Source: an uncultured bacterium (GTDB lineage Bacteria; Auribacterota; JACPWU01). From it: DNA of 32,000 nucleotides. Below are positions 3,883 through 29,516 of this stretch, in pieces. Position 1 is the first letter of the stretch, and each line of letters begins with the position of its first letter. The stretch lies in NCBI GenBank assembly GCA_964640155.1, contig CAZXEQ010000001.1:546403-578402 (forward strand), written 5' to 3'. The notes below the pieces were generated by a model that did not search any database, had not been told where the DNA came from, and saw only the letters and a program-made list of their open reading frames with translations. Both the position numbers and the translations under genes were made by a program.

Positions 3883-3900
3883 AGGAAAAGAAAAGTGATT

Positions 3901-3973
3901 AAGGGCTAAGAGTTAAGGGCTATGGGCTAAAAAACATCGAATTTTTCTAGCCCTTCCCTCTTAGCCCCTAGCC
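3901..3973. repeat. Imperfect 73-bp palindrome built from GGGCTA/TAGCCC units
   Basis: GGGCTAAGAG (3903-3912) is perfectly complementary to CTCTTAGCCC (3958-3967). AAGGGCTA (3915-3922) pairs with TAGCCCTT (3948-3955). AAAAA pairs with TTTTT around the loop CATCGAA. Confidence 0.6.
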
Positions 3974-4121
3974 GATAGCATGTATAAAAGTGTGTACTTT
4001 ATGTATGCGGGTGACACTCGGCGGGGAGCCCCGCCGCGCGCAATTTTTCATGAGCACGGTGGGGCTGACGAGTGTCAGGCCCTGCTACTTTTCTAAAAGT
4101 ACACACTTTTATGTACAACAT
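3974..4121 (+). mobile_element. 148-bp MITE-like element, copy 1 (GC-rich structured core, inverted arms)
   Basis: Perfect 17-bp inverted arms at 3984-4000 and 4096-4112. GC-rich core at about 4007-4085. Exact 9-bp direct repeat CCCCTAGCC at 3965-3973 and 4122-4130. Homologous to the copies at 23644-23791 and 29081-29228. Confidence 0.7.
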
Positions 4122-4150
4122 CCCCTAGCCCTGTTTTTCTAAGTAATCTT

Positions 4151-4179
4151 TTGACACCATCGATTCACTGTTATAAAAT
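4151..4179 (+). promoter_or_regulatory. Near-consensus sigma70 promoter of the pilus-like cluster
   Basis: TTGACA (4151-4156), 17-nt spacer, TAAAAT (4174-4179). The predicted start site falls within a few nt of the ATG at 4188. Confidence 0.5.
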
Positions 4180-4187
4180 TCGAGCTC

Positions 4188-4757
4188 ATGAGACAAAAGA
4201 TATTCCTGGGGGTTGTCTTTATCATCTTTTCATTAAGCTCTGGCTTTTTAGAATCTGCCAGCAAAACCAAGCATCCTCTTGTTTTAGATAAAATCAATGT
4301 GGATTACCGCTCTAAGGGAGGCTCTGGTTTTGAAGGATTTGAATCCAAAGGCCTCTCCTCACTCAATCAAGCCAATCAGAATCTTGGCAAATGGGCTCAA
4401 ATAGAAGTTCAGTATCGAAGTTCTTTAGCATGGACAGATGAACTCGTTCTTAAATTTTATGTTTTAACAGATCGCACCGTTCTTCAAGACAGTATCACGC
4501 AAATCAATGTTCCCCAGGGCCGCCGACATTTTGCTGTTGTCTATCTTCATCCCACCACATTACAACGCTATGGAGAAATAAAAAGAGCGGCTGTTCAAAT
4601 TTTTCACAGAGGGGAATTAATAGACACCGATCAATGGCCTCAAAGAACAAAAAAAGAATGGTGGAAAGAATATCCTGGCAGAGAAGGTCTTTTAAAAAAG
4701 GAATTTCAAACCCCTTTTATTTTAGATCACCCCAGTCGATATGAAGATACGAAATAA
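4188..4757 (+). CDS. Secreted hypothetical protein, first gene of the pilus-like cluster
   Basis: 189-aa ORF with an N-terminal signal-like segment MRQKIFLGVVFIIFSLSSGFLESA. I recognise no motif. Confidence 0.6.
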   Translation: MRQKIFLGVVFIIFSLSSGFLESASKTKHPLVLDKINVDYRSKGGSGFEGFESKGLSSLNQANQNLGKWAQIEVQYRSSLAWTDELVLKFYVLTDRTVLQDSITQINVPQGRRHFAVVYLHPTTLQRYGEIKRAAVQIFHRGELIDTDQWPQRTKKEWWKEYPGREGLLKKEFQTPFILDHPSRYEDTK

Positions 4758-23642: not shown

Positions 23643-23643
23643 T

Positions 23644-23791
23644 ATACCTGCACATAAAAGTGTGCATCTTTATGGATGCGGGTGACACTTAGCGGGGAAC
23701 CCCGCCGCGCGCAACTAATACTCGAGCACGGTGGGGGGCCAAGTGGCAGGACCCGCTACTTTGTAAAAGACCACATTTTTATATACACAGT
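23644..23791 (+). mobile_element. 148-bp MITE-like element, copy 2 (most divergent)
   Basis: Boundaries set by homology to copies 1 and 3. Core GCGGGTGACACTTAGCGGGGAACCCCGCCGCGCGC ... CACGGTGGGGGGCCAAGTGGCAGGACCCGCTAC. Begins 2 nt after the yraN stop. No convincing flanking duplication. Confidence 0.6.
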
Positions 23792-23887
23792 GCAATGGAT
23801 TAATATCATTTTTTCTATGACTGACAAAGGGTAAATTACGATATACTTACATTTCTAACATTCAAGTGATTTGGGGAATTCACTAAA

Positions 23888-29058: not shown

Positions 29059-29080
29059 ATCTACTCTTTTTAAAGCGTTG

Positions 29081-29228
29081 GATATTGCAATTAGAAGTGT
29101 GTCCTTTATAATACGGGTGACACTCGACGGGGAGCCCCGCCGCACGCAATTTTTAATAAGCACGGTGGGGCTGACGAGTAGCAGGACCCGCTACTTTTTT
29201 CAAAGTACACACTTTTATGTACACCGCC
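29081..29228 (+). mobile_element. 148-bp MITE-like element, copy 3
   Basis: Core is about 90 percent identical to copy 1 by eye. Exact 8-bp direct repeat AAGCGTTG at 29073-29080 and 29229-29236. Starts with GATA, like copy 1. Confidence 0.7.
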
Positions 29229-29254
29229 AAGCGTTGAATCTAAAAACAATCTGT

Positions 29255-29283
29255 TTGCTTCATCTGATGTGATTTGATACAGT
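29255..29283 (+). promoter_or_regulatory. Candidate sigma70 promoter upstream of tatA
   Basis: TTGCTT (29255-29260), 17-nt spacer, TACAGT (29278-29283). Confidence 0.3.
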
Positions 29284-29339
29284 TCTCTCATTGTATGGGC
29301 TCCTAAGCCTGATTGTATCAGCAATTTAAAGGGGTTATT

Positions 29340-29516
29340 ATGATGCCAGGATGGTCTGAGTGGATTGTCATTCTTCTTATTATTCTTCTTCTTTTTGGGG
29401 CCAAAAGGCTTCCTGAAATTGCCAAATCCTTGGGCAAAGGAATTCAAGAATTTAAAAAGGCCATGAAAGGTGAAGACGAGGGAAAGCCCAAAGATTCTAA
29501 TGAAGAGCGAAAATAA
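29340..29516 (+). CDS. tatA: Twin-arginine translocase subunit TatA/E
   Basis: From ATG 29340: [41 protein letters not shown], a TM helix plus the FG-K-LPE amphipathic motif. The track start TTG 29313 is less likely. Confidence 0.85.

Follow-up and report, generated by a model that had tools for sequence, protein, structure and literature searches.

A family of GC-rich imperfect palindromes, probably mobile, in Auribacterota and other, mostly uncultured bacteria

Three copies in a housekeeping region

The DNA analysed here, referred to as the window, is a 32,000-nucleotide stretch from an uncultured member of the Auribacterota. It is housekeeping DNA, with genes for a SpoIIE/GAF phosphatase and a PilM pilus-like operon along with rho, prfA, trmD, rplS, rnhB, yraN, comM and tatC. 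Three copies of a repeated element are found in this setting, all of them intergenic and all on the plus strand. Copy 1 (3974-4121) is 148 bp long, forms one long imperfect hairpin and scores 90.8 bits with the covariance model R1 at 3998-4094; its neighbours are divergent genes, and a strong promoter-like TTGACA-17-TAAAAT follows 30 nt downstream. Copy 2 (23644-23791, core at 23678-23756, 81.1 bits with R1) starts 1-2 nt past the stop codon of yraN and is the most diverged, and copy 3 (29081-29228, core at 29113-29191, 77.2 bits) starts 22 nt past the preceding stop codon. Copies 2 and 3 had been described as homologues of copy 1 in the same orientation, which direct reading of the sequence bears out, with pairwise identity among the three of 74-84%.

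The copies consist of a GC-rich core set between AT-rich arms, the GC fraction being 0.63-0.70 in the cores, 0.26-0.32 in the arms and 0.383 in the window, so the preliminary description was right to see a GC-rich core in AT-rich surroundings. In the window the core pattern is found three times, where shuffles give an expectation of 0, and the arm motif six times, where the expectation is 0.15. Copy 1 folds at -69.7 kcal/mol (z = -8 against shuffles) and does carry the perfect 17-bp inverted arms that had been claimed for it, with ATAAAAGTGTGTACTTT at 3984-4000 and its exact reverse complement at 4096-4112, both of them specific to this lineage. The arms are subterminal, they begin 10 nt inside the ends that the flanking repeats define, and of the terminal 9-10 nt of copy 1 only about 3 are complementary (about 5 of 12 in copy 3), with termini that differ among the copies and are not inverted repeats. 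No solo arms were found in the window or in the fetched loci checked for them. The idea that the arms are pre-existing palindromes targeted by the core was rejected, as 0 core-less long palindromes were found in 23 kb of relevant loci.

The ends of copy 1 are set by the exact 9-bp direct repeat noticed earlier, CCCCTAGCC, which is confirmed at 3965-3973 and 4122-4130 and is taken as a target-site duplication; it is the longest flanking repeat of this copy and was equalled in 10 of 300 shuffles. Copy 3 is likewise delimited to 148 bp by an 8-bp repeat, AAGCGTTG (29073-29080 and 29229-29236), found in a flanking-repeat scan that returned no repeat for copy 2. The repeats of copy 1, copy 3 and L001, a copy from a second Auribacterota genome with a repeat of 8 bp, all begin 35-36 nt from the core, and a rough estimate puts the probability of this shared offset arising by chance below 1e-4. 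Insertions of the element bear short flanking duplications, of 8-9 bp in the Auribacterota. When copy 1 and one CCCCTAGCC are deleted in silico the result is ...TTAGCCCCTAGCCCTG..., in which a GGGCTA/TAGCCC palindrome is complete, and the suggestion that copy 1 interrupts the edge of this palindrome therefore holds.

The palindrome belongs to an older GGGCTA/TAGCCC repeat hairpin at 3900-3970, which is context and not part of the element, copy 1 having been inserted at its 3' edge. It has three or four GGGCTA/TAGCCC units and stands upstream of the conserved promoter of the Amuc_1102-like/PilM operon. The closest relative has a hairpin in the same place (L056 8240-8345) that is built from CCGGTT/AACCGG units, with the same architecture and another repeat word. 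These swapped words suggest an operator or other regulatory structure that may co-evolve with its binding factor. The TTGACA-17-TAAAAT site (4151-4179) stops 9 nt short of the ATG at 4188, so that the transcript would have a very short leader or none, and the motif TTGACACC...TGTTATAAAATTCG at this site is kept in the relative. At the other end of the window a minus-strand ORF of 113 aa (29106-29447) overlaps copy 3; it is probably spurious, most frames of the GC-rich core having few stops or none, and ORFs arising in this way could be mis-annotated as genes.

The core hairpin and the breadth of the family

The conserved core of copy 1 (4007-4085, plus strand) was delineated from its fold, the family alignment and pair counts. 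It begins with P1 (4007-4011 with 4081-4085), a 3-nt bulge, GGC (4078-4080), and P2 (4012-4020 with 4069-4077), which a G-run junction (4021-4028) connects to P3 (4029-4036 with 4057-4064, including a G.U pair), with a mismatch-bearing extension and apical loop on top (4037-4056). Read from its base, the hairpin of the family as a whole has a variable outer stem and then P1, closing in GGG/CCC, followed on the 3' strand by a 3-nt bulge that is GGA or GGC. Above the bulge come two fixed pairs (U-A and G-C) and a purine-purine mismatch, beyond which P2 has 5-7 pairs of free sequence. A G-run on the 5' strand lies between P2 and P3, the latter is usually CCCCGCCG/CGGUGGGG with a G.U pair, and beyond P3 there are conserved C-A and G-A oppositions and a variable cap that is often a tetraloop hairpin. 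The core measures 73-79 nt and the element 95-148 bp.

Conservation of this structure is seen in the pairing of 25 family members, where 94.6% of cells are paired compared with about 40% when the partners are slid, and where covariation scores 0.214, with shuffles giving 0.099 and none of 500 reaching the observed value. Each of positions 5-9 of P2 is occupied by 4-6 pair types, the pair that closes the cap (P4) switches from G-C to A-U, and in L057-L061 the G.U of P3 is replaced by A-U. That P3 looks invariant is in part an effect of ascertainment, the metagenome search pattern having included its sequence. It is apparent that the apex is not obligatory, given a mini variant in L023 of 48 nt that consists only of P1, the bulge and P2 with the cap UGGGGGAUA, and a copy in L065 whose apex is AT-rich where others have the GC-rich P3. 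What marks a member of the family is the basal module. An extra hairpin of 6-40 nt lies between P3 and the 3' strand of P2 in L004 (141-219), L013 (1865-1976) and L029 (224-334), which shows modular expansion of the structure. As both strands fold about equally well, folding energy is uninformative as to strand preference. A reading of the bulge as a kink-turn was rejected, there being no tandem G-A pairs after it.

Strong covariation, together with conserved non-canonical G.U, C-A and G-A oppositions, a bulge and a G-run, is typical of functional RNA, and this raises the alternative of a structured non-coding RNA, be it the product of a small RNA gene or a cis-acting element such as a protein-binding hairpin, a stabiliser of mRNA 3' ends or a terminator. 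The core would then act as RNA, the copies would have arisen by duplication and any mobility would be secondary. We regard this as unlikely, and the absence of a matching Rfam family is one point against it. The earlier statement that no named RNA family matches agrees with a search of Rfam 15 with the window and 17 loci, in which the element had no match at gathering thresholds and, with E up to 10, only chance matches to microRNA, snoRNA and antisense families. Several likenesses of shorter reach were also set aside. A hammerhead reading of CUGACGAG in copy 1 was rejected because the motif lies within P2, is missing in the other copies and has no ribozyme match in Rfam, and the resemblances to 5S rRNA (GCGCCGAUGG) and to a Tn3 inverted repeat (GGGGTCTGACG) are short word matches in the variable part without Rfam support, as is the short word match to 4.5S RNA (CAGGNCCC).

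The family is common to at least three distant bacterial groups. In the species collection the sole carrier of the core variant seen in the window lineage is a Candidatus Auribacterota MAG with four copies (L001-L004), whose cores are nearly identical to those of the window and whose AT-rich arms are replaced or degraded, still tending to pair. A metagenome scan with a pattern from the hairpin apex gave 44 hits, 23 of which are full-length relatives scoring 46-96 bits with the covariance model, the remaining 21 (20 bits or less) being chance matches to the pattern alone in GC-rich DNA. Outside the search pattern all relatives keep GGGTGRC at the 5' end, the G-run, GAG before CACGG, and the same CAGGNCCC at the 3' end. 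The hosts are Auribacterota, 'Deltaproteobacteria bacterium' MAGs, Candidatus Saccharibacteria and other metagenome contigs, with contigs that span 36-70% GC. In other phyla the arms are of unrelated yet pairing sequence, and the core is conserved with compensatory changes across these distant hosts. As the core is kept across groups while the arms vary, the element is not an orphan private to one lineage, and further copies are found beyond the window, both in the second Auribacterota MAG and in the relatives elsewhere. No BLAST match for the element or for a GC-rich relative was found in plasmids and phages, and the pattern scan of viral contigs found none. In the literature, full-text matches to the core sequence were only to primers, and keyword searching gave no description of the family.

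Orientation bears on the RNA alternative in two ways. Each of the seven Auribacterota copies for which the downstream gene is known runs in the same direction as that gene, which suits a transcribed RNA, counts against mobile DNA and keeps the RNA alternative alive, as does the position of many copies directly past stop codons. Outside the Auribacterota the orientation to neighbouring genes is mixed, and across the family the copies have no common gene context; both points count against the RNA alternative. A promoter-like TTGCAA-16-TATAAT in the left arm of copy 3, ending 4 nt before the core, is a point in its favour, but copies 1 and 2 do not conserve it, and copy 1 is itself upstream of the nearest promoter and between divergent genes. 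An own promoter was rejected as a general feature, a good -35/-10 pair being present in copy 3 only.

Gain and loss of copies between relatives

The closest relative of the window is represented by a 37-kb Logan contig, fetched as L056 and L050, with a ComM 87% and a PilM 66% identical to those of the window and with synteny that spans all of the window. Empty sites in relatives had been named in the preliminary description as a check on insertion, and in this relative all three sites are empty. The yraN-comM spacer, which is the site of copy 2, is 84 nt in L050 compared with 245 nt in the window, the spacer before tatA (copy 3) is 79 nt compared with 254 nt, and the phosphatase/Amuc_1102 spacer (copy 1) is element-free with the downstream promoter kept; the spacers are too diverged for a single copy of the duplicated bases to be legible. 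The covariance model finds no copy anywhere in the 37-kb contig. That the closest relative does without all three copies and has no visible replacement for them argues against the structured-RNA alternative.

The yraN-comM spacer is an insertion hot spot in its own right. The window has the hairpin element there (23643-23887), one relative has a DUF559 endonuclease-like gene, and in others the place is taken by a DUF2204 nucleotidyltransferase-like gene, in some cases together with a 90-aa ORF (relatives' spacers: L051 9597-9995, L053 9303-9869, L054 5031-5841). Two Logan assemblies of the window's own genome end in or just after a copy, one of them inside copy 1, as is expected for a dispersed repeat, and the element is in practice a cause of breaks when these MAGs are assembled.

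Presence and absence can be followed more closely in Candidatus Saccharibacteria, to which L023 is assigned from RecJ homologues so named at 70-73% identity. L065 is a relative of L023, with a RecJ that is 88% identical, and three sites differ reciprocally in occupancy between the two. Within priA L023 has a full copy flanked by the 11-bp repeat AAAACCGAACA, which is single in L065, where PriA has no insert. Upstream of priA L023 has the 48-nt mini variant, missing in L065. At the 3' end of recJ it is L065 that has a copy, L023 having only 7 nt between the genes there. In L065 (7604-7696) the recJ frame enters the element and stops at the TGA of GGGTGAC, so that the insertion has rewritten the last residues of RecJ and supplies its stop codon. 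Together with the empty sites of the Auribacterota, copies have been gained or lost between close relatives in two phyla.

The copy in priA is antisense to the gene and is read through in frame, and the residence of an intact copy in this position is evidence against the RNA alternative. Two other low-GC contigs have copies that are sense and in frame, inside the genes for a RumA-like methyltransferase and an RluB-like pseudouridine synthase. The in-frame copies add roughly 25-30 residues each to PriA and to the RluB-like and RumA-like proteins, and alignments of the latter two to solved structures break exactly at the insertion of about 25 residues. Either orientation, and residence in frame within coding sequence, is tolerated. 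It would appear that priA and the rluB-like and rumA-like genes are essential genes that tolerate an insert of this size, its translation being predicted. An antisense coding copy combined with mixed orientation argues against an obligatory RNA role.

Two further loci concern the behaviour of the arms. In 'Deltaproteobacteria bacterium' MAGs an element lies between bipA and the gene for a fatty-acid hydroxylase, and at least five assemblies retain it with unchanged arms. Because of this stability the idea that arms hypermutate in general was rejected, and retention of the element at the locus is a point in favour of the RNA alternative. At a recR/mglA-like locus L042 and L045 are about 98% identical in their flanks (the mglA-like gene and its promoter) and agree at 69 of 70 core positions, and they are almost fully different over 62 nt of 3' arm and tail (L042 2743-2805 compared with the reverse strand of L045), a difference that is read as replacement by another family member.

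Mobilisation and kinship with known small repeats

Taken as a whole, copy 1 and its siblings are probably non-autonomous, selfish mobile DNA elements of about 148 bp, within a family of GC-rich imperfect palindromes that has no name as yet. The structured core is best read as the functional unit, the part that is acted on in cis. Action at the level of DNA is indicated by copies that lie in frame in coding sequence, in sense and in antisense, and by mixed orientation outside the Auribacterota. An enzyme acting in trans, be it a transposase or another recombinase, may recognise the folded single strand, of DNA or of an RNA copy; it would be encoded elsewhere and would insert the element at a staggered break. 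The lineage-specific arms might merely lengthen the hairpin, needing only to pair and hence being free to drift or be exchanged, and the inserted element would be largely neutral cargo, although when transcribed it would form a very stable hairpin that could affect mRNA ends. The window encodes no transposase among its listed ORFs or the ten scanned against Pfam, as had been stated, and neither the window nor the fetched loci showed a transposase or any other gene that might be a candidate for mobilisation. Some features count against mobile DNA. The ends set by the flanking repeats show no inverted repeat and no conservation, unusual features for a product of DDE transposition, and the flanking repeats range from 6 to 11 bp across lineages and are missing for copy 2, L024, L042 and the L006/L017/L036 subfamily. 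A 12-bp repeat flanking L013 was rejected as a target duplication, as it belongs to another dispersed repeat.

The element is best filed as a new variant among the small palindromic mobile repeats, which include MITE, REP and RPE sequences, and each of these is like it in part. It had been called a non-autonomous MITE-like element, and this stands in that it is repeated and non-coding, has 8-9-bp repeats on two of the three window copies and has empty sites. It does not stand as to terminal inverted repeats, which are missing because the arms lie 10 nt inside the element and the termini are neither inverted nor conserved. Like the MITEs Correia/NEMIS, ERIC, RUP and Nezha, the element is small, non-coding and multi-copy, with target duplications, presence or absence among relatives and a stable hairpin when transcribed. 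In MITEs the terminal inverted repeats match those of an IS and are conserved whilst the middle varies; here it is the middle that is conserved and the arms that vary, and no partner IS was seen in the window or in the fetched loci. The MITE label fits the behaviour of the element, not its anatomy.

A parallel for the coding copies is given by the Rickettsia palindromic elements (RPE), palindromic and non-coding sequences of 100-150 bp that are dispersed between genes or in frame in housekeeping genes, where the short added peptide is tolerated by the protein, as in PriA and the RluB-like and RumA-like proteins here. In-frame coding insertion, a trait of RPEs, is seen for these three members, the window copies being intergenic. 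To our knowledge RPEs are confined to Rickettsia, unlike the present family with its GC-rich covarying core in at least three distant groups, although the two are set apart by description and not by sequence. Mobile GC clusters of yeast mitochondrial DNA are likewise palindromic, GC-rich islands, able to spread through an AT-rich genome and to reside in coding sequence, but they are much shorter, belong to a eukaryotic organelle and are unrelated in sequence, so that the likeness is in behaviour only.

A further possibility is that the element is of REP type and is moved by a HUH tyrosine transposase (RAYT, of the IS200/IS605 family) that reads a single-stranded hairpin and a GTAG tag, and this we consider quite improbable. 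The element does resemble REP/BIME sequences in being an imperfect GC-rich palindrome with bulges, found mostly downstream of genes and at times inside replication or RNA-modification genes. GTAG adjoins the stem in Auribacterota copies, standing directly 5' of P1 on the minus strand in six of the seven, but it is absent in all other lineages. The bulge and mismatches would suit strand-specific recognition of a single-stranded DNA hairpin, and the 48-nt mini variant is REP-sized, whereas REPs are 20-40 bp, species-specific and without target duplications and the present element is 95-148 bp (core 73-79 nt, 48 in the mini variant), crosses phyla and has flanking repeats of 8-11 bp. Transposition of the IS200/IS605 type yields no flanking duplications. 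No RAYT was found in the scanned window ORFs or in the pre-computed Pfam hits of genes at the protein-look-up loci, and none was seen in any fetched locus. REP/BIME sequences with RAYT transposases include GTAG- and CGTC-tagged REPs, and REPs are documented inside replication, repair and RNA-modification genes (PMC3733652), classes of gene that match those hit here.

The variable length of the duplications and the lack of conserved termini would also be consistent with a small RNA mobilised in the manner of a SINE, in which a resident reverse transcriptase would copy a hairpin RNA into DNA for insertion at nicks, and the strongly structured core is RNA-like. However, none of the loci showed a reverse transcriptase, neither a 3' tail nor an internal promoter signature is present, and we know of no bacterial precedent; such an origin is thus very improbable. 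Antisense and coding-sequence copies do not discriminate this route from DNA models.

As a rule, a small palindromic repeat is restricted to a single genus and is defined by its ends. In the present family it is instead an internal hairpin, covarying and mismatch-bearing, that is conserved, and it is common to Auribacterota, Saccharibacteria and 'Deltaproteobacteria' MAGs. Such a core points to recognition by the same machinery, or else to horizontal transfer between lineages that are uncultured. It is conceivable, if rather unlikely, that the basal module (the GGG/CCC helix, GGA bulge, U-A and G-C pairs, purine-purine mismatch and G-run) is the recognition site of an as yet unrecognised trans enzyme that mobilises hairpins across phyla, is neither classical DDE nor of IS200/IS605 type, and accepts a folded single strand with any arms, leaving duplications of variable length. 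If true, the family would represent a new class of mobile element, one that is structured and can colonise coding sequence, and the replacement of arm and tail between L042 and L045 would reflect element turnover. The family is a tractable marker of recent insertion events, and it is a candidate for RNA and repeat libraries, the current ones of which miss it.

Another repeated sequence accompanies the element in the RCNC01 metagenome, where L028 (about 1180-1400) and L036 (about 750-970) share a conserved segment, about 200 nt long, that lies upstream of the element copy in each. The segment reads GGCACGG.TCCCCTGCG.CCCCCTCA...GACCCTCTTAT..TAGCTCGCCTCCAAACG and looks like a second dispersed repeat or RNA, and a related motif, CCCGCGTATCCGCACGCC, recurs in L013 and L036.
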